Positions 2,124 to 52,655 of a DNA stretch of 64,000 bases are shown piece after piece (positions within the stretch are counted from its first letter, which is position 1; each line of letters begins with the position of its first letter). The DNA comes from Escherichia phage vB_EcoM_JE01: sequence record PQ471460.1. One strand, given 5' to 3'. A program made the position numbers and the translations under genes. The notes under the pieces are model-generated. The model was not told where the DNA came from and searched no databases. It was given only the letters and a program-made list of their open reading frames with translations.

Positions 2124-2864
2124 ATGATTAACGATTATATGACAGTTGAAGAAATCCGTCTTGATTTGGGTCTTGCATTAAAGGAAAAAGATTTCGTAAT
2201 TGATAAAACCGGTGTTAAAACTATTGAAATTATTGGTGCATCATTTGTAGCAGATGAACCTTTTATTTTTGGCGCTCTTAATGATGAATACATTCAGCGT
2301 GAACTTGAATGGTATAAGTCTCAAAGTTTGTTTGTTAAAGATATTCCAGGTGAAACACCAAAGATTTGGCAGCAGGTAGCATCTTCTAAAGGCGAAATTA
2401 ACTCGAATTATGGTTGGGCCATCTGGTCAGAAGATAACTATGCCCAGTATGATATGTGTTTAGCTGAACTTGGTCAAAATCCTGATTCTCGACGCGGTAT
2501 CATGATTTATACTCGTCCATCCATGCAGTTTGACTACAATAAAGATGGTATGTCAGATTTCATGTGTACGAATACAGTACAGTATCTGATTCGTGATAAG
2601 AAAGTCAATGCAGTAGTAAGCATGCGTTCAAATGACGTGGTCTTCGGATTCCGTAATGATTATGCATGGCAAAAATACGTACTAGATAAATTAGTATCTG
2701 ATTTGAATGCAGGTGATTCAACTCGTCAGTATAAAGCAGGTTCTATTATATGGAATGTCGGAAGTCTTCATGTGTATTCCCGTCATTTTTATTTGGTTGA
2801 CCATTGGTGGAAAACTGGCGAAACTCATATTGCGAAAAAAGATTATAACGGTGAGTGGAAATGA
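2124..2864 (+). CDS. 42: dCMP hydroxymethylase gp42 (246 aa)
   Basis: Thymidylate-synthase-like protein of exactly 246 aa between imm and uvsX. Confidence 0.9.
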   Translation: MINDYMTVEEIRLDLGLALKEKDFVIDKTGVKTIEIIGASFVADEPFIFGALNDEYIQRELEWYKSQSLFVKDIPGETPKIWQQVASSKGEINSNYGWAIWSEDNYAQYDMCLAELGQNPDSRRGIMIYTRPSMQFDYNKDGMSDFMCTNTVQYLIRDKKVNAVVSMRSNDVVFGFRNDYAWQKYVLDKLVSDLNAGDSTRQYKAGSIIWNVGSLHVYSRHFYLVDHWWKTGETHIAKKDYNGEWK

Positions 2865-3703
2865 TTCAATTCGTAATTCCAAGTTATCAACGCGTAGGGG
2901 CAGTTTCTGCCCTTAATATGTTTCCATCTGATTATGAACCTCATATTGTAGTACGTAAACACGAAGAAAAAGCTTATTATGATGCTTATGGGTCTAGAGC
3001 TAAAATTATAACTATTCCTGATGATGTTAATGGAATTGCTGGTACTCGTAAAGCAATTACTGATATGTATGCAGGCCAACGAATCTGGATGATTGATGAT
3101 GATACTACTATTCGTATGAGTTCAATGCGAAAGAAAGATGATCGTCGTTGCGTAGATAAAATTAATCAATTAACTCGTGAACAGTTCTATGAATTGATTC
3201 AATACGTTGAAGATGCCATGGATTGTGGGTATTATCACGGTCATGCTCGTCTACCTATTTTTAAAATTACTTCATCTTGGGGTAATTATCGTGAAAATTC
3301 ATATGGATTCACGAATACCTGGTATGACCTTGGAAAACTTACAACAGAACAAATTGGGTATGGAAAAATTGATTTATGCGAAGATATGTATGCATTTCTC
3401 AATTTAATTAATCAAGGTTATCCGCATTTGGCCTTGTTCAAATATCTGGTTGTATCTGGAAAAGCACAAGCTCCTGGCGGATGTAGTTCAATTCGTAGTA
3501 ATTCAAAACATAATAGAGCGCTTGAGCAAATCAATAGAGAGTTTCCAGAGCAAGCTCGTTGGAAAACTTCTAATATTGAAAAACGAAAATCATTAGGTGA
3601 AGAAGACGAGCCATTAAAGGTTCTTCGCATGTGTGTTTCGCGCAAAGAAAAATCAGAAGCATTTCATAAGTTTAATGCTATTCATCCAATAGCAGTTGAT
3701 TAA
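2861..3703 (+). CDS. Glycosyltransferase, GT-A-like with DxD motif (280 aa); probable hydroxymethylcytosine sugar transferase
   Basis: ATG overlaps gene 42 stop (ATGA); N-terminal VIPSYQR and IWMIDDDTTI (DxD) motifs; occupies the slot between 42 and uvsX where T4 has beta-gt, but is not T4 beta-gt. Confidence 0.6.
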   Translation: MIQFVIPSYQRVGAVSALNMFPSDYEPHIVVRKHEEKAYYDAYGSRAKIITIPDDVNGIAGTRKAITDMYAGQRIWMIDDDTTIRMSSMRKKDDRRCVDKINQLTREQFYELIQYVEDAMDCGYYHGHARLPIFKITSSWGNYRENSYGFTNTWYDLGKLTTEQIGYGKIDLCEDMYAFLNLINQGYPHLALFKYLVVSGKAQAPGGCSSIRSNSKHNRALEQINREFPEQARWKTSNIEKRKSLGEEDEPLKVLRMCVSRKEKSEAFHKFNAIHPIAVD

Positions 3704-3727
3704 TGCCTAAATTTATTGTGTTATAAT
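3704..3727 (+). promoter_or_regulatory. Middle-promoter-like element upstream of uvsX
   Basis: TGCCT (one mismatch to MotA box TGCTT) at 3704-3708, 13 nt gap, TATAAT 3722-3727. Confidence 0.3.
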
Positions 3728-3780
3728 TACCCTATCTTTAACCAGTGAGGAAAATATAATGATGCCTATGGAAAAAATGA

Positions 3781-8684: not shown

Positions 8685-9713
8685 ATGTCATCAATACCTT
8701 GGATTGATAATGAGTTTGCATACCGTGCATTAGCTCATTTACCTAAATTCACACAAGTAAATAATAGTTCAACTTTTAAATTACGGTTTAGATGCCCTGT
8801 TTGTGGAGATTCAAAAACCGACCAAAATAAAGCCCGTGGATGGTATTATGGCGATAATAATGAAGGAAATATTCATTGTTATAACTGTAACTATCATGCA
8901 CCAATCGGAATATATTTAAAGGAGTTTGAACCTGATTTATATCGTGAGTATATCTTTGAAATAAGAAAAGAAAAAGGTAAAAGTCGTCCAGTAGAAAAAC
9001 CTAAAGAACTTCCTAAACAACCCGAGAAGAAAATAATTAAATCTCTTCCGTCATGCATTAGATTAGATAAACTGGCGGAAGACCATCCAATTATAAAATA
9101 CGTAAAAGCTCGTTGTATTCCAAAGGATAAATGGAAATATCTTTGGTTTACAACTGAATGGCCTAAATTAGTTAATAGTATAGCACCAGGAACATATAAA
9201 AAGGAAATACCTGAGCCTCGTCTTGTTATTCCAATTTATAATGCTAATGGAAAAGCTGAGTCTTTTCAAGGACGTGCATTAAAGAAAGATGCTCCCCAAA
9301 AATATATCACCATCAAAGCTTATCCTGAGGCAACAAAAATTTATGGTGTTGAACGAGTTAAAGATGGTGATGTATATGTTCTAGAAGGACCTATAGATTC
9401 ACTTTTTATTGAAAATGGTATAGCTATTACGGGTGGTCAATTAGACCTAGAAATTGTTCCATTTAAAGATAGACGTGTATGGGTTTTAGATAATGAACCT
9501 CGTCACCCTGACACTATTAAACGAATGACTAAATTAGTTGATGCAGGAGAAAGGGTTATGTTTTGGGATAAATCTCCCTGGAAATCAAAAGATGTCAATG
9601 ATATGATTAGAAAGGAAGGTGCAACCCCTGAACAAATTATGGAATATATGAAAAATAATATTGCCCAAGGGCTGATGGCTAAAATGCGGCTATCTAAATA
9701 TGCTAAGATTTAA
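8685..9713 (+). CDS. 61: DNA primase gp61, 342 aa
   Basis: 342 aa; zinc-ribbon CPVCGDS...CYNCN and TOPRIM-like core. Confidence 0.9.
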   Translation: MSSIPWIDNEFAYRALAHLPKFTQVNNSSTFKLRFRCPVCGDSKTDQNKARGWYYGDNNEGNIHCYNCNYHAPIGIYLKEFEPDLYREYIFEIRKEKGKSRPVEKPKELPKQPEKKIIKSLPSCIRLDKLAEDHPIIKYVKARCIPKDKWKYLWFTTEWPKLVNSIAPGTYKKEIPEPRLVIPIYNANGKAESFQGRALKKDAPQKYITIKAYPEATKIYGVERVKDGDVYVLEGPIDSLFIENGIAITGGQLDLEIVPFKDRRVWVLDNEPRHPDTIKRMTKLVDAGERVMFWDKSPWKSKDVNDMIRKEGATPEQIMEYMKNNIAQGLMAKMRLSKYAKI

Positions 9714-9910
9714 ATTAACCCAACCAAAGCAAATGCTAAATCTACGAATGTATCAAGAGTAATTACTGGAATACTAACGCCATGAGCAATAGCAACTGGC
9801 GATAAAACAAAATTCCAAAGTAAAATTCCTATCATAGCAGAAATAGTAAAAGCTATACGTTTTTTATTACCTTTGATGGCATTAACAAGTGCCATTAATT
9901 TTTGTACCAT
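9710..9910 (-). CDS. Hypothetical small membrane protein (66 aa), antisense to the early gene block
   Basis: Strong RBS AGGAGG 4 nt before ATG on minus strand; two hydrophobic segments. Confidence 0.45.
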   Translation of the reverse strand: MVQKLMALVNAIKGNKKRIAFTISAMIGILLWNFVLSPVAIAHGVSIPVITLDTFVDLAFALVGLI

Positions 9911-9920
9911 ATGTCCTCCT

Positions 9921-9947
9921 TATTGCTTTATATATTTATTGTATAAT
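9921..9947 (+). promoter_or_regulatory. MotA-dependent middle promoter candidate upstream of HNH gene
   Basis: Perfect MotA box tatTGCTTTA (TGCTT 9924-9928), 13 nt gap, TATAAT 9942-9947. Confidence 0.5.
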
Positions 9948-9980
9948 TAATCTACTAACCCATGAATTGAAAGGATATAT

Positions 9981-10631
9981 GTGAATTACCAAAAAATTTA
10001 CTCGGCTTTAATTACAAAAGCTAAATGCCGGCATCTTGGTGGATATAAAGAACGCCATCATATAATTCCTAGATGTATGGGAGGAGCAGATGACAAAAAC
10101 AATCTTGTTGAGTTAACTGCGCGTGAGCATTTTATAGCTCATAGATTATTAACCAAAATATATCCAGATGTGAGAGGATTGCATTATGCTGTAAATTTAA
10201 TGCGATATAATAAAGGTGTTAAATTAACAAGTAGATTAATAGAAACCCTTAAAATTCAAAACTCTGTTCTTTTCTCGGGTGAAAATAATCCTAGATATGG
10301 CAAGCCGTCATGGATTAAAGGCAAAAAGACCCCAGAAGAAACTAAAGCCAAAATGCGTCTAGCTCATAAAGGTAAAATTATATCCGATGAAGCCAAGGCT
10401 AATATGAGTAAAGCCCGAAAAGGAAGATTTAGCGGTAAAAATTCACCTCGATATTGTTTACCGAATCCAAGACGTGGTGAGATATGGAATTCGTATGATT
10501 CGCTTTACGAGTTGTGGGTTTATAATAATAGACCTAAGCGCACAAAATTTAATAAAATAGCTGTCAAGGCAGGTTATCCTAATATCTGCTATAGACATAT
10601 GATAGAAAACTTCATAAGAAAGGAAAAATAA
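9981..10631 (+). CDS. HNH homing endonuclease (216 aa, GTG start)
   Basis: HNH motif ERHHIIPRCMGGADDKNNLVELTAREHFIAH plus NUMOD-like repeats (ENNPRYGKP, KAKMRLAHKGK, KANMSKARKG). Confidence 0.7.
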   Translation: MNYQKIYSALITKAKCRHLGGYKERHHIIPRCMGGADDKNNLVELTAREHFIAHRLLTKIYPDVRGLHYAVNLMRYNKGVKLTSRLIETLKIQNSVLFSGENNPRYGKPSWIKGKKTPEETKAKMRLAHKGKIISDEAKANMSKARKGRFSGKNSPRYCLPNPRRGEIWNSYDSLYELWVYNNRPKRTKFNKIAVKAGYPNICYRHMIENFIRKEK

Positions 10632-10632
10632 C

Positions 10633-11151
10633 ATGCCACATTTCAACGAATGTAGTCATCTGATCGAAGGCGCTGATAAAGCTCAAAATGAATACTGGGA
10701 TATTCTCGGTGACGAAAAAGACCCGCTGCAAGTTATGCTTGATATGCAGAAATCTCTGCAAGTTCGTTTAGCTAAAGATAAACCTGAATATAATCGTCAT
10801 CCTGATGATTTGGCTACTGCTGGTGAAGTTGTTGATTGGCTGCGTAATCAGAAAGATTATATTGACGATGAATTCCGTGAACTTCTGACATCTCTTGGTG
10901 GTATGAGCAATGGCGAAAAAGATGCATCTGCTGTATGGAAGCCTTGGAAAGCTCAACATGGTGAACGCCGTGAAACTCTAATTACCGATTTGTCTCCGCA
11001 AGACCAGTTGGAAATTAAATTCGAAATGATTGATATTCTTCATTTCGTTCTGAACATGTTCCAAGGTCTTGGTCTTACAGCTGAAGAAATCTTTAAACTT
11101 TATTATCTGAAAAATGCTGAAAACTTCGCTCGTCAAGACCGAGGTTATTAA
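10633..11151 (+). CDS. 56: dCTPase / dCTP pyrophosphatase gp56 (172 aa)
   Basis: MazG-like protein of T4 gp56 length, upstream of soc. Confidence 0.85.
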   Translation: MPHFNECSHLIEGADKAQNEYWDILGDEKDPLQVMLDMQKSLQVRLAKDKPEYNRHPDDLATAGEVVDWLRNQKDYIDDEFRELLTSLGGMSNGEKDASAVWKPWKAQHGERRETLITDLSPQDQLEIKFEMIDILHFVLNMFQGLGLTAEEIFKLYYLKNAENFARQDRGY

Positions 11152-11184
11152 TATAAACGACAGCTTAAAAGCCGTGAGAATTAT

Positions 11185-11192
11185 TATAAATA
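11185..11192 (+). promoter_or_regulatory. Late promoter TATAAATA for soc
   Basis: Exact TATAAATA 31 nt upstream of soc ATG. Confidence 0.6.
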
Positions 11193-11222
11193 ATCATGTA
11201 ATTTAAATAAAAGGAGAATTAC

Positions 11223-11468
11223 ATGGCTAGTACTCGCGGTTATGTTAATATCAAAACATTTGAGCAGAAATTAGATGGAAATAAGAAAATTGAAGGAAAG
11301 GAAATTTCAGTAGCTTTCCCTCTTTATTCTGACGTTCACAAAATTTCTGGCGCTCATTACCAGACATTCCCTTCAGAAAAAGCAGCATATACTACTGTAT
11401 ATGAAGAAAATCAACGTGATGCATGGATTGCTGCAAACGAAGATTTGTGGAAAGTAACTGGTGAATAA
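11223..11468 (+). CDS. soc: Small outer capsid protein Soc (81 aa)
   Basis: Near-identical to T4 Soc as I recall it (MASTRGYVNIKTFEQKLDGNKK...). Confidence 0.9.
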   Translation: MASTRGYVNIKTFEQKLDGNKKIEGKEISVAFPLYSDVHKISGAHYQTFPSEKAAYTTVYEENQRDAWIAANEDLWKVTGE

Positions 11469-11474
11469 ATTCAA

Positions 11475-11498
11475 GGACTCCTTCGGGAGTCCTTTTTT
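11475..11498 (+). terminator. Intrinsic terminator after soc
   Basis: GGACTCC-TTCG-GGAGTCC hairpin followed by TTTTTT. Confidence 0.7.
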
Positions 11499-11508
11499 CA
11501 TTTTACCG

Positions 11509-11538
11509 GTTTACTTTCCAAAACAAGTATGGTATAAT
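11509..11538 (+). promoter_or_regulatory. T4-type early promoter
   Basis: GTTTAC 11509-11514, 18-bp spacer, TGgTATAAT (TATAAT 11533-11538). Confidence 0.65.
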
Positions 11539-11564
11539 AAAATTATCTTATAGAGGAGAGCACC

Positions 11565-11771
11565 ATGTTAAATCGTTGGATTAAACCAAATGAAGATTTA
11601 GATATTATCATTTCACGGCATGTAATGAAGAAATATGAACTACAACCATGGTCTACAGAAGTTGTTGTGCATTCATTTATGATGTACGCAGATGGTTCTG
11701 TCGAATTTAATGCAGAGATTCGATATGATTATGGTGAGAAGCAAGTTGAATTCAAGAGAGGCTTTTTGTAA
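11565..11771 (+). CDS. Hypothetical protein (68 aa)
   Basis: ORF with GGAG RBS downstream of early promoter. Confidence 0.45.
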   Translation: MLNRWIKPNEDLDIIISRHVMKKYELQPWSTEVVVHSFMMYADGSVEFNAEIRYDYGEKQVEFKRGFL

Positions 11772-50778: not shown

Positions 50779-51327
50779 ATGAAACAATACCAAGATTTAA
50801 TTAAAGACATTTTTGAAAATGGCTATGAAACCGATGACCGAACAGGCACAGGAACAATTGCTTTGTTCGGTACTAAATTACGCTGGGATTTAACTAAAGG
50901 TTTTCCTGCGGTAACAACTAAGAAGCTCGCCTGGAAAGCTTGCATTGCTGAGCTAATATGGTTTTTATCGGGAAGCACAAATGTCAATGATTTACGATTA
51001 ATTCAGCATGATTCATTAATTCAAGGCAAAACAGTCTGGGATGAAAATTACGAAAATCAAGCAAAAGATTTAGGATACCATAGCGGTGAACTTGGTCCAA
51101 TTTATGGAAAACAGTGGCGTGATTTTGGTGGTGTAGACCAAATTGTAGAAGTTATTGATCGTATTAAAAAACTACCAAATGATAGGCGTCAAATTGTTTC
51201 TGCGTGGAATCCAGCTGAACTTAAATATATGGCATTACCGCCTTGTCATATGTTCTATCAGTTTAATGTGCGTAATGGCTATTTGGATTTGCAGTGGTAT
51301 CAAAGAAGTGTAGATGTTTTCTTGGGT
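50779..51327 (+). CDS. td: Thymidylate synthase, exon 1 (183 codons)
   Basis: TS N-terminal domain; reading frame hits the in-frame TAA that is the first triplet of the group I intron. Confidence 0.9.
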
Positions 51328-52343
51328 TAATTGAGGCCTGAGTATAAGGTGACTTATACTTGTAATCTATCTAAACGGGGAAACTCTCTAGTAGACAATC
51401 CCGTGCTAAATTGTAGGACCACCCTTTAATAAATACCTTTATATTTAAAGAGGTATTTATGAAAAGTGGAATTTATCAGATTAAAAATACTTTAAACAAT
51501 AAAGTATATGTAGGAAGTGCTAAAGATTTTGAAAAGAGATGGAAGAGGCATTTTAAAGACTTAGAAAAAGGATGCCATTCTTCTATAAAACTTCAAAGGT
51601 CTTTTAACAAACACGGTAATGTGTTTGAATGCTCTATTTTGGAAGAAATTCCATATGAGAAAGATTTGATTATTGAACGAGAAAATTTTTGGATTAAAGA
51701 GCTTAATTCTAAAATTAATGGATATAATATTGCTGATGCAACGTTTGGTGATACATATTCTGTGCATCCATTAAAAGAAGAAATTATTAAGAAACGTTCT
51801 GAAACTGTTAAAGCTAAGATGCTTAAGCTTGGAACTGATGGTCGGAAAGCTCTTTACGGTAAACCCGGAAGTAAAAACGGACGATGGAATCCAGAAAAAC
51901 ACAAATTTTGTAAGTGCGGTGTTCGTATACAAACTTCTGCTTATACTTGTAGTAAATGCAGAAATCGTTCAGGTGAAAATAATTCATTCTTTAATCATAA
52001 GCATTCAGACATAACTAAATCTAAAATATCAGAAAAGATGAAAGGTAAAAAGCCTAGTAATATTAAAAAGATTTCATGTGATGGGGTTATTTTTGAATGT
52101 GCAGCTGACGCAGCTAGACATTTTGAAATTTCATCCGGATTAGTTACTTACCGTGTAAAATCTGATAAGTGGAATTGGTTCTACATAAATGCCTAACGAC
52201 TATCCCTTTAGGGAGTAGGGTCAAGTGACTCGAAACGATAGACAACTTGCTTTAACAAGTTGGAGATATAGTCTGCTCTGTATGGTGACATGCAGCTGGA
52301 TATAATTCCGGGATAAGATTAACGACCTTATCTGAACATAATG
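51328..52343 (+). mobile_element. td group I self-splicing intron (1016 nt) carrying the I-TevI homing endonuclease gene
   Basis: Begins TAATTGAGGCCTGAGTATAAGGTGACTTATAC..., ends ...GGGATAAGATTAACGACCTTATCTGAACATAATG; TS frame resumes at 52344; length and sequence match the T4 td intron as I recall it. Confidence 0.9.
51459..52196 (+). CDS. I-TevI GIY-YIG homing endonuclease (245 aa), intron-encoded
   Basis: GIY-YIG motif GIYQIKN...KVYVGSA; 245 aa inside the td intron. Confidence 0.9.
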   Translation: MKSGIYQIKNTLNNKVYVGSAKDFEKRWKRHFKDLEKGCHSSIKLQRSFNKHGNVFECSILEEIPYEKDLIIERENFWIKELNSKINGYNIADATFGDTYSVHPLKEEIIKKRSETVKAKMLKLGTDGRKALYGKPGSKNGRWNPEKHKFCKCGVRIQTSAYTCSKCRNRSGENNSFFNHKHSDITKSKISEKMKGKKPSNIKKISCDGVIFECAADAARHFEISSGLVTYRVKSDKWNWFYINA

Positions 52344-52655
52344 CTTCCATTCAACATTGCATCATATGCTGCATTAGTTCATATTGTAGCTAAGATGTGT
52401 AATCTTATTCCAGGAGATTTGATATTTTCTGGTGGTAATACTCATATCTATATGAATCACGTAGAACAATGTAAAGAAATTTTGCGTCGTGAACCTAAAG
52501 AGCTCTGTGAACTGGTAATAGGCGGATTGCCTTATAAATTCCGCTATCTTTCTACTAAAGAACAATTGGAATACATTCTTAAACTCAGGCCTAAAGATTT
52601 CGTTCTCAAAGATTATCAGTCCCATGGTGTCTTGAAAGGAAAAATGGCGGTGTAA
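52344..52655 (+). CDS. td: Thymidylate synthase, exon 2 (103 codons)
   Basis: LPFNIASYAALVHIVAKMCNL... continues TS C-terminal domain; exon1+exon2 = 286 aa. Confidence 0.9.
   Translation, partial: LPFNIASYAALVHIVAKMCNLIPGDLIFSGGNTHIYMNHVEQCKEILRREPKELCELVIGGLPYKFRYLSTKEQLEYILKLRPKDFVLKDYQSHGVLKGKMAV

Follow-up and report, generated by a model that had tools for sequence, protein, structure and literature searches.

Organisation of the gene 61–gene 56 interval

The window analysed here is a stretch of 64,000 nucleotides from Escherichia phage vB_EcoM_JE01 (PQ471460.1). Between gene 61, encoding the primase gp61 (8685–9713), and gene 56, encoding the dCTPase/dUTPase (10633–11151, + strand), it holds two open reading frames, both confirmed as originally predicted: a 216-aa HNH endonuclease gene with a GTG start directly upstream of gene 56 (9981–10631, + strand), and a 66-aa frame on the opposite strand, here called orf66 (9710–9910, − strand), the stop of which overlaps that of gene 61 by 4 nt. 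Gene 56 is the presumed target gene of the endonuclease. Its product shows 100% protein identity to that of phage W143 and only 74% to that of T4. Downstream, soc (11223–11468) follows after a spacer of 71 bp; segF is absent there, in keeping with the earlier statement that this interval is empty. Rfam returned no RNA family in 9000–11600, and base composition gave no foreign signal in the HNH cassette.

The 5′ end of orf66 contains, on the + strand, a terminator-like hairpin (9873–9905) with an 11-bp stem and a 4-nt loop, followed by TTTTTGT. Its folding energy is −12.4 kcal/mol (z = −4.3), and none of 200 shuffled sequences was as stable. A terminator is annotated at the same place in phage fPS-90, and the hairpin is the probable terminator of the gene 61 transcript.

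Middle-mode promoters of T4 have a mot box with the consensus (a/t)(a/t)TGCTT(t/c)A, centred near −30 and 11–13 bp upstream of a TAnnnT −10 element. The sequence at 9922–9947 (+ strand) matches this pattern, with the mot box ATTGCTTTA at 9922–9930, an 11-nt spacer and the −10 element TATAAT at 9942–9947, and is presumably used as a MotA-dependent promoter. Alignment with the T4 dam-56 spacer identified it as the homologue of P(M)16.53, the promoter of gene 56 and of the oriA transcript; the T4 record X01416 annotates mot box, −10 element and Shine-Dalgarno sequence in the same order and spacing, and in fPS-90 the site is annotated as ‘predicted middle promoter’. The endonuclease gene had been predicted to be driven by its own near-consensus MotA-type promoter. 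The type was assigned correctly, but the promoter is the resident P(M)16.53 of the dam-56 intergenic region. Together with the same Shine-Dalgarno sequence it is also found in genomes without the HNH gene (T4, T2, W143 and JK42), and an element carrying its own promoter was therefore rejected. A scan for sigma-70 promoters performed no better than on shuffled sequences (6 found, 5.6 expected), an unsurprising outcome, as such a scan does not extend to the middle and late promoters of T4.

orf66 is a resident gene

orf66 encodes a small membrane protein of PHROG 2024 (E 1.9e-30; labelled function unknown), and neither Pfam nor NCBIfam gave a match. This is the family annotated as ‘hypothetical protein’ in most T4-like genomes of the Tevenvirinae, where it lies between gene 61 and either dam or gene 56. 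The AlphaFold model (pLDDT 81) places helices at residues 2–12, 16–42 and 52–62. The description as a two-helix membrane ORF proved roughly right, given that hydropathy and the model together indicate one long hydrophobic helix (residues 16–42) and a short C-terminal helix (residues 52–62). One UniRef entry names an orf66 homologue ‘Holin’. The neighbours here are primase and dCTPase genes, the T4 holin is the product of gene t, and the label is unsupported.

The strong Shine-Dalgarno sequence reported for this frame, AGGAGG, was located at 9915–9920 on the − strand (CCTCCT on the + strand), 4 nt before the ATG. Further upstream on the same strand, 22 nt from the ATG, lies AATAAATA (9933–9940), which agrees in 7 of 8 positions with the box of T4 late promoters, TATAAATA. 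Every genus examined has a NATAAATA box at the corresponding position; on the reverse strand it reads GATAAATA in T4, ELT1 and IME537, CATAAATA in the Klebsiella phage and AATAAATA in SSE1 and ESCO10. The box may function as a late promoter, and orf66 is probably expressed late. A literature search on T4 ribosome profiling and small proteins yielded nothing relevant to orf66.

orf66 was found in 692 phage records, T4 and T2 included, with or without the HNH gene. The T4 copy is 92–94% identical (two aligners) and is unannotated in NC_000866, as it is in the T2 record. Tequatrovirus, Mosigvirus and Jiaodavirus all keep the frame, at 63–66 aa and with the core WN..P..HG..P..L(D/E) conserved, and its dN/dS of 0.13–0.29 indicates purifying selection. 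By this distribution orf66 is to be regarded as an old resident gene outside the HNH insertion, and its earlier treatment as part of the novelty had to be given up. The original prediction, which took neither ORF to be resident in the well-characterised T-even genomes, holds for the endonuclease gene, found in 69 phages other than the classical T-evens, but not for orf66.

The 216-aa protein belongs to the Mob family

The HNH core, ERHHIIPRCMGGADDKNNLVELTAREH, is contained in the 216-aa frame, and three regions can be distinguished in the protein (all on the + strand): an HNH catalytic domain (aa 1–62; nt 9981–10166), NUMOD3 repeats (about aa 103–150; nt about 10287–10430) and a C-terminal three-helix, HTH-like domain (aa 167–215; nt 10479–10625). 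The original assignment as an HNH endonuclease with NUMOD-like repeats is borne out by several profile comparisons. Pfam detected NUMOD3 (PF07460) in two stretches at 28.5 bits against a gathering cut-off of 20.4, and this family is present in most homologues; the NUMOD3 region also matches the profile of the I-TevI DNA-binding domain (1i3j, E 0.0039). The Pfam HNH family (PF01844) scored 18.4 bits (E = 0.0024), just under its gathering cut-off of 21.4, as is typical for short HNH motifs. The protein further matches PHROG 655, ‘homing endonuclease’ (3e-59), and its HNH motif is aligned by profile to the HNH domain of McrA (E 0.0014) and to the En domain of group II intron maturases (E 0.002). 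In an alignment of 44 family sequences H26/H27, N41, H50 and H54 are invariant, in line with the general-base His and the metal-binding Asn and His of the HNH (beta-beta-alpha-metal) nuclease superfamily, and the AlphaFold model shows in the HNH part two strands (24–27 and 42–45) followed by a helix (47–60), with pLDDT above 90.

Foldseek comparison of the whole AlphaFold model with the PDB returned nothing significant, the best match being a Cas8-HNH domain (E 0.86), probably because whole-chain comparison copes poorly with an elongated multi-domain model. A single-sequence phmmer search of the PDB gave no match below E 0.1, and NCBIfam has no family for this protein. The literature search found no paper on the 216-aa protein; the publication on fPS-2 and fPS-90 does not discuss the gene.

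Mob genes combine an HNH domain with a distinct C-terminal region (PMC2988022). The 216-aa protein conforms to this definition in having a MobE-like N-terminal HNH domain (73% identity to T4 MobE over aa 1–62) and a divergent remainder (about 30–43%), encoded by an intergenic gene. As had been proposed, the gene is free-standing, since it lies outside any intron. The dN/dS of about 0.1 indicates strong purifying selection, and every copy inspected is intact. Judged on its sequence, the frame very probably belongs with the Mob genes of T4 as a free-standing gene for a homing endonuclease, with cleavage activity and a target site to be expected from this membership.

The cassette separates gene 56 from its Shine-Dalgarno sequence

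Comparison of empty and occupied junctions defined an HNH cassette of 649 bp (+ strand), the ends of which can be written as 9976–10624 or equally as 9969–10617 because the boundary is ambiguous within a 7-bp repeat, GAAAGGA. Positions 2070–2076 of W143 align to two stretches of the window, 9969–9975 and 10618–10624. The empty site reads GAATTGAAAGGAAAAATAACATG, and the occupied site reads GAATTGAAAGGA up to the junction and TATATGTG... beyond it. The cassette, which has no promoter of its own, thus parts gene 56 from its Shine-Dalgarno sequence, precisely between that sequence and the ATG. The upstream copy of the repeat (9969–9975, + strand) is the one that gene 56 originally used as its Shine-Dalgarno sequence; it now serves the GTG start of the HNH gene, and the downstream copy (10618–10624, + strand) now serves gene 56; bounded in this way, the cassette leaves both genes with a ribosome-binding site. 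The HNH gene ends with a TAA stop codon (10629–10631) in what is natively the leader of gene 56, leaving 1 nt between it and the ATG of that gene.

The site is empty in T4 and T2, and none of the 15 homing endonucleases listed for T4 is located there (PMC2988022), in agreement with the earlier view of a non-T4 insertion site.

An in-frame HNH–gp56 fusion was seen in two Mosigvirus isolates, SSE1 and AV111. The fused form differs by one A in the A-run before gene 56, and may have arisen by recent slippage or be an artefact of sequencing.

Absence of dam is an independent polymorphism

The original prediction correctly placed dam between genes 61 and 56 in T4, as the T4 genome confirmed, and also the reported lack of a methyltransferase was upheld, given that tblastn with T4 Dam found no homologue in the 61-56 interval or in the whole window (best E = 0.96). 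The further suggestion that the HNH gene may have replaced dam was not sustained. BLAST breakpoints put the junction of the dam cassette, which measures 878 bp in ELT1 and is also present in T4, T2 and IME537, at 9921/9922, about 50 bp upstream of the HNH junction at 9975/9976. All four combinations exist: dam without HNH (T4, T2), both (ELT1, IME537), neither (W143, JK42), and HNH without dam, as in the present window. T4-type Dam was found in only 182 records, compared with about 500 with a Tequatrovirus-type locus, and its absence is therefore the commoner state. By these comparisons the lack of dam is an indel in its own right, frequent among relatives and situated at a neighbouring junction.

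Distribution and transfer between genera

Orthologues of the HNH gene were found in 69 of the phage records, about 10% of the 692 with the locus, and in every record examined (Tequatrovirus, Mosigvirus, Jiaodavirus, Dhakavirus and Kosakonia phage 305) the gene adjoins gene 56. The uninterrupted junction occurs in at least 293 records. The gene is already annotated at gene 56 in dozens of sequenced phages, and such sporadic presence at one fixed site among relatives is what characterises homing genes.

Across three genera the HNH protein is 93–98% identical, whereas gp61 is 61–74%, orf66 30–52% and Soc 46–63% identical; dS of the HNH gene is only 0.13–0.30 in comparisons of genera with saturated or 61–74% identical flanking genes. 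Recent lateral transfer is required by these values. Orthologues of 79–80% identity occupy the same site in Dhakavirus and Kosakonia phages, so that the association must also be old and some of the patchiness may reflect loss.

The boundaries of one transfer are visible in Mosigvirus SSE1, which carries the HNH gene. On either side of the insert SSE1 shares 98–100% identity with JK42, a congener without the HNH gene, and from about 9960 to about 10670 it matches the Tequatrovirus window at 97–100%, with the mosaic boundary at about +34 of gene 56. The segment 10625–10666 (+ strand), ATGCCACATTTCAACGAATGTAGTCA(A/T)CTGATCG, made up of the leader of gene 56 and its initial ~34 nt, thus travels with the HNH gene between genera, and is best read as a co-conversion tract, on the basis of one clear event, SSE1/AV111. 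In Jiaodavirus no such tract could be defined, the HNH-less KPV15 already having the same 34 nt of gene 56. The segment is also a candidate for the recognition or cleavage region. Downstream of the cassette everything from GAAAGGA onward is preserved, and genomes with the HNH gene may therefore still carry much of the presumed target.

Discussion

The anatomy of the locus suggests how the element could be expressed and spread. Transcription of the HNH gene would begin at the MotA-dependent middle promoter that gene 56 already had, and its translation at the GTG start with the former gene 56 Shine-Dalgarno sequence. During mixed infection the endonuclease would nick or cut an HNH-less allele near the start of gene 56, and recombinational repair from the HNH-bearing genome would bring the cassette into the recipient, along with a short stretch of adjoining sequence, about 34 nt of gene 56. 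The majority of the free-standing endonucleases of T4 are likewise encoded by cassettes that lack promoters and rely on those upstream (PMC2988022).

That the HNH gene, a middle promoter of its own and the antisense frame arrived as one unit and displaced dam from the 61-56 interval would account for dam standing in T4 where the window has the HNH gene and for the lack of a Dam homologue in the window. However, orf66 and the promoter are present in HNH-less T4, T2, W143 and JK42, dam and HNH coexist in ELT1 and IME537, the two junctions differ (9921/9922 for dam, 9975/9976 for HNH), and genomes with neither gene are common. This four-way pattern of presence and absence, combined with the distinct junctions, refutes such a replacement, to which we assign a negligible probability. 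Loss deserves more attention. The HNH gene may have been ancestral at the site and its patchiness mainly the result of repeated precise excision through recombination between the 7-bp GAAAGGA repeats, in place of ongoing homing. Clean excision could indeed be mediated by the direct repeats, the empty sites of W143 and KPV15 carry exactly the gene 56 5′ sequence that is linked to HNH elsewhere, and the Dhakavirus and Kosakonia orthologues speak for an old association. The high protein identity and low dS across divergent genera, on the other hand, call for recent lateral transfer, and in the SSE1/JK42 mosaic a foreign tract has been imported into a Mosigvirus backbone. The incongruence between the divergence of the HNH gene and that of its flanking genes argues against loss as the sole explanation, and we regard loss as the main cause as unlikely.

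A slightly smaller chance still is given to the possibility that the protein has become a domesticated, non-homing nuclease kept for a benefit to the phage, such as exclusion of competitors, processing at oriA or gene 56, or partnership with the dCTPase. Such a role would agree with the strong purifying selection and the tight translational juxtaposition with gene 56, with the in-frame fusion, and with the position of T4 oriA, annotated at +23 of gene 56 and within the segment that is passed on together with the HNH gene. Presence in so small a share of the locus-bearing genomes shows, however, that the gene is dispensable; distribution and mosaic boundaries fit a homing element, the fusion hangs on that single A, and there is no sign of interaction with gp56.

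The homing reading can be taken further, into a combined proposal that we consider improbable, if marginally less so than loss. The endonuclease would specifically target the promoter-proximal start of gene 56, where oriA is annotated in T4; gene 56 and oriA would be contested from both sides by two unrelated homing endonucleases, SegF downstream in T4 and the HNH enzyme upstream; the fusion would be a first step of domestication; and orf66 would be a genuine late T4 membrane-protein gene. Nicking in the region of the origin transcript would, if this were true, couple homing to origin-dependent or recombination-dependent replication.

Taken as a homing element of the Mob family, the 216-aa gene adds one member and one site to the catalogue of free-standing T-even homing endonucleases and leaves the current view of how such systems work unchanged. 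As a natural example it is clean: the cassette is a precise 649 bp, the ribosome-binding site has been duplicated, the middle promoter is hijacked, and a co-conversion tract of ~34 nt is seen across genera. Which selfish nuclease flanks gene 56, beside origin A, varies from phage to phage, and this helps to explain the unusual divergence of its alleles (74% between T4 and JE01) in genomes that are otherwise 95–99% identical. For annotation, the absence of dam from the window should be treated as a separate, common polymorphism, and the T4 reference genome has an unannotated, conserved gene for a 66-aa membrane protein between gene 61 and dam.

Among known systems, the 216-aa endonuclease is an ordinary member of its class. 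With I-HmuI and I-TevIII it shares the modular arrangement of an HNH domain and an extended DNA-binding region with NUMOD modules, but those enzymes are intron-encoded and this gene is free-standing; no direct structural match of the protein to I-HmuI was recovered. T4 SegF, which targets gene 56, is, like it, a free-standing homing endonuclease flanking that gene and is tied to divergent gene 56 alleles (PMC2988022). SegF belongs, however, to the GIY-YIG family, lies on the other side, between gene 56 and soc, and is absent from the window. T4 MobE, which makes nicks in its target and has a high frequency of inheritance (PMC2988022), has the same NUMOD3-type repeats after the HNH domain and is equally free-standing, promoter-less and packed against an essential gene of nucleotide metabolism. 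MobE lies between nrdA and nrdB, whereas the 216-aa gene stands upstream of gene 56, and the stop/start overlap of MobE contrasts with a GTG start that has its own Shine-Dalgarno sequence. In view of the low identity beyond residue 62, the DNA-binding part, and presumably the specificity, of the two enzymes differs.

Organization of the gene 61–gene 56 interval

The interval between the primase gene 61 (8685-9713; preceded by 61.1, 61.2 and sp) and the dCTPase gene 56 (10633-11151, + strand) contains two open reading frames, both exactly where the original prediction had placed them. These are the HNH gene (9981-10631, +), a GTG-initiated frame whose 216-aa product contains ERHHIIPRCMGGADDKNNLVELTAREH close to the N-terminus, and the antisense orf66 (9710-9910, −; 66 aa). 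Gene 56 is followed by soc (11223-11468), and since the spacer between them is only 71 bp, segF is absent from the window. In T4 (NC_000866) gene 61 is followed by a 309-bp gap without annotation and then by dam, 56, segF and soc, which confirms the position given for dam in the original prediction; oriA is annotated at +23 of gene 56 in the same record. The window represents a Tequatrovirus of mosaic make-up, sharing 95-97% identity with its best 25-kb matches; no near-identical record was found among the database matches.

The HNH cassette and its promoter

The empty site in phage W143 reads CCCATGAATTGAAAGGAAAAATAACATGCCACATTTC. In the occupied site of the window, CCCATGAATTGAAAGGA is joined to TATATGTGAATTACC ahead of the HNH gene, and CTTCATAAGAAAGGA to AAAATAACATGCCACATTTC behind it. 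The inserted cassette comprises 649 bp (9976-10624 or, equivalently, 9969-10617), its ends being ambiguous within GAAAGGA, a 7-bp sequence repeated directly at both boundaries (9969-9975 and 10618-10624), which is the gene 56 Shine-Dalgarno. Of the two copies, the upstream one now stands in front of the HNH GTG as its Shine-Dalgarno, while the downstream one lies within the final HNH codons and serves gene 56. The HNH stop codon (10629-10631) is located in the native gene 56 leader, 1 nt ahead of the ATG.

A middle promoter is present at 9922-9947 (+), consisting of ATTGCTTTA (9922-9930), an 11-nt spacer and TATAAT (9942-9947). The positionally homologous dam-56 spacer of T4 shows ATTGCTTA, 13 nt, TATAAT, 23 nt, AAGGA and ATG, which record X01416 assigns to promoter P(M)16.53, naming its mot box, -10 and Shine-Dalgarno; the fPS-90 record carries a predicted middle promoter at the equivalent position. 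Because the promoter also occurs in HNH-less genomes, the HNH cassette is, as judged from these alignments, promoter-less and would use the resident gene 56 promoter, and not a middle promoter of its own as had been proposed. T4 free-standing endonucleases usually lack their own promoter and use resident upstream ones (PMC2988022).

orf66 is a resident gene

The antisense frame had been regarded as part of the insertion. However, T4 and T2 both carry it, and tblastn hits came from 692 phage records: Tequatrovirus accounts for about 500, with at least 80% identity, while Mosigvirus and others make up about 190, at close to 50%. orf66 is a resident gene of the subfamily, unconnected with the HNH insertion. 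The T4 copy (NC_000866 17738-17938, +; 92-94% identical by two aligners) lies in the 309-bp gap and is unannotated, as is that of T2 (LC348380 16642-16842, +); most newer T4-like genomes list it as ‘hypothetical’.

The protein belongs to PHROG 2024, a family labelled as of unknown function. Three genera keep the frame at a length of 63-66 codons; its conserved core is WN(F/Y)..P....HG...P...L(D/E), and its dN/dS is 0.13-0.29. In an AlphaFold model, aa 2-12 form an amphipathic helix at the N-terminus, aa 16-42 a hydrophobic helix of 27 residues and aa 52-62 a short helix at the C-terminus. orf66 very probably is a real gene for a small membrane protein; the ‘Holin’ label on one database homologue was without support. 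Its ribosome-binding site is AGGAGG, and about 20 nt upstream of the ATG a NATAAATA box, matching 7/8 of the T4 late-promoter consensus, occurs in every genus examined, pointing to likely late expression. In dam-less genomes this late-promoter-like box (9933-9940, −) falls within the spacer of the + strand middle promoter.

A strong hairpin with an 11-bp stem and a T-run behind it (9873-9905, +; dG -12.4, z -4.3) overlaps the orf66 5' coding region on the opposite strand, about 160 nt beyond the gene 61 stop. It looks like the gene 61 terminator, and the fPS-90 record annotates a terminator at this position.

In ESCO10 (Dhakavirus; about 2250-2470, −, of the compared locus) the orf66 homologue appears frameshifted or shortened, its N- and C-terminal parts being in different frames. 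Product names nearby look misassigned, e.g. ‘molybdenum ABC transporter’, or ‘anti-sigma factor’ for gene 56.

dam and the HNH gene are independent indels

The original prediction considered that the HNH gene might replace dam, and no Dam homologue was found anywhere within the 64-kb window. Comparison of fetched loci and BLAST breakpoints nevertheless revealed two independent indels. The dam cassette (878 bp in ELT1) is joined between 9921 and 9922, where the orf66 ribosome-binding site directly precedes it and the middle promoter follows; the HNH junction lies ~50 bp downstream of this point. Each of the four combinations occurs: dam alone (T4, T2), both (ELT1 and IME537 only), neither (W143, JK42 and many others, the uninterrupted junction being covered in at least 293 records) and HNH alone (the window and about 28 Tequatrovirus records). 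With separate junctions and every combination seen, the HNH gene has not taken the place of dam. Counting matches of at least 90% identity, T4-type Dam was found in 182 records, less than half of those with a Tequatrovirus-type locus, where absence of dam is the commoner state.

The dam cassettes of T2 and IME537 are longer, with an additional 181-186-aa ORF between orf66 and dam (T2_032, 1865-2410, −, of the T2 locus; gp144, 1621-2181 of the IME537 locus). This ORF contains an FDIV...EIK motif and gives weak, sub-threshold Pfam matches to the DpnII (GATC) restriction endonuclease (E 0.0096), BanI and HSDR_N. In T4 only its last 13 codons remain upstream of dam (about 3130-3170 of the T4 locus). 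A restriction-modification module of the DpnII type may have been the ancestor of the dam cassette.

Distribution and evidence of movement

At a cut-off of E of 1e-60 or better, HNH orthologues were found in 69 records. These include about 33 Tequatrovirus records (Escherichia, Yersinia and Salmonella phages and one labelled Pseudomonas), 2 Mosigvirus and 22 Klebsiella Jiaodavirus records, Kosakonia phage 305 (80% identity), and VR5 and ESCO10 (79%). The gene is directly 5' of gene 56 in all records examined. Its product is 98% identical to that of the window in Mosigvirus and 93.5% in Jiaodavirus; the respective values in the same genomes are 74% and 61% for gp61, 52% and 30% for orf66, and 56-63% and 46% for Soc. 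Between these genera the HNH gene differs at synonymous sites by only 0.13-0.30; its dN/dS is about 0.1, and inspected copies were all intact.

In a sliding comparison, Mosigvirus SSE1 was 98-100% identical to its HNH-less congener JK42 on either side of the HNH tract and matched the Tequatrovirus window at 97-100% from about 9960 to about 10670. At the nucleotide level the upstream crossover lies within shared TGAATTGAAAGGA. The downstream one falls between +34 and +38 of gene 56, where JK42 has ATGGCACACTTTAACGAATGTTCACAACTTATTTCTGG and SSE1 ATGCCACATTTCAACGAATGTAGTCAACTGATCGAAGG, SSE1 then being identical to JK42. This mosaic looks like the outcome of homing with a short co-conversion tract, and its boundaries put the likely break site somewhere from the insertion point to about +37 of gene 56. 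Inference of a candidate target is limited by two features: downstream of the cassette, the sequence from GAAAGGA on stays intact in HNH-containing genomes, which may thus retain much of the candidate target and would need another basis for immunity, and the HNH-less W143 (Tequatrovirus) and KPV15 (Jiaodavirus) already have the HNH-linked 34 nt. The latter two may represent the empty cognate site, or they may descend from carriers that lost the cassette via the 7-bp repeat.

Identity of the HNH protein and comparison with T4 endonucleases

Pfam detected NUMOD3 above threshold in two stretches and HNH slightly under threshold, and PHROGs assigned the protein to PHROG 655 ‘homing endonuclease’ (3e-59). 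Nearly all of more than 3000 relatives carry NUMOD3. Residues E24, H26, H27, P30, G35, N41, E49, H50 and H54, which include the HNH catalytic residues, are invariant in a 44-sequence alignment. A profile built from it matched the McrA HNH motif (E 0.0014) and, in a group II intron maturase, the En domain (E 0.002); the NUMOD3 region of the profile matched the I-TevI DNA-binding domain (E 0.0039).

No second copy of the family was detected within the window, the only other homing endonuclease being I-TevI. The td (thymidylate synthase) gene (50779-52655, +) is interrupted by an intron-like insert encoding this 245-aa GIY-YIG enzyme (51459-52196; Pfam I-TevI_DNA-bd 4e-32, I-TevI_ZnF 1.5e-20, GIY-YIG 2.4e-18), the classical layout of the td intron in T4.

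Among T4 proteins, MobE is the closest. The HNH domains are alike (73% identity across the first 62 residues), whereas the repeats are divergent (about 30-43%), which implies a target that would differ from that of MobE. Edgell et al. (PMC2988022) described this combination, a common HNH domain with a distinct DNA-binding region, as the pattern of the Mob proteins. In dozens of GenBank/RefSeq records the gene at this locus is labelled ‘homing endonuclease’, ‘HNH endonuclease’, ‘MobE’ or ‘mobile endonuclease D’, and a literature search found no paper characterising it. None of the 15 endonucleases in the T4 catalogue lies at the site upstream of gene 56 (PMC2988022). The proposal of a mobile HNH endonuclease at a non-T4 site held, and the gene is best regarded as an uncharacterised Mob family member at a site not used in T4.

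In SSE1 (Shigella phage; 2564-3736 of its locus) and AV111 (Escherichia phage; 2519-3691 of its locus), Mosigvirus isolates from China and Denmark, a 390-aa in-frame HNH-dCTPase ORF combines NUMOD3 and dUTPase_2 domains. The A-run before the gene 56 ATG is A4, not A5, and the HNH stop codon is therefore removed. The fusion could be real or a homopolymer sequencing error.

The gp56 of the window is 100% identical to that of W143 and 74% to that of T4 (1771-2286 of the T4 locus), whereas identity to T4 is 96-99% for gp61, Soc and Mrh.2. Such low identity beside well-matched neighbours is in keeping with a locus where endonuclease-driven replacement of alleles has recurred. In T4 the divergent gene 56 allele accompanies segF, which the window lacks; SegF targets gene 56 from the other side, whereas the HNH gene described here flanks it upstream.
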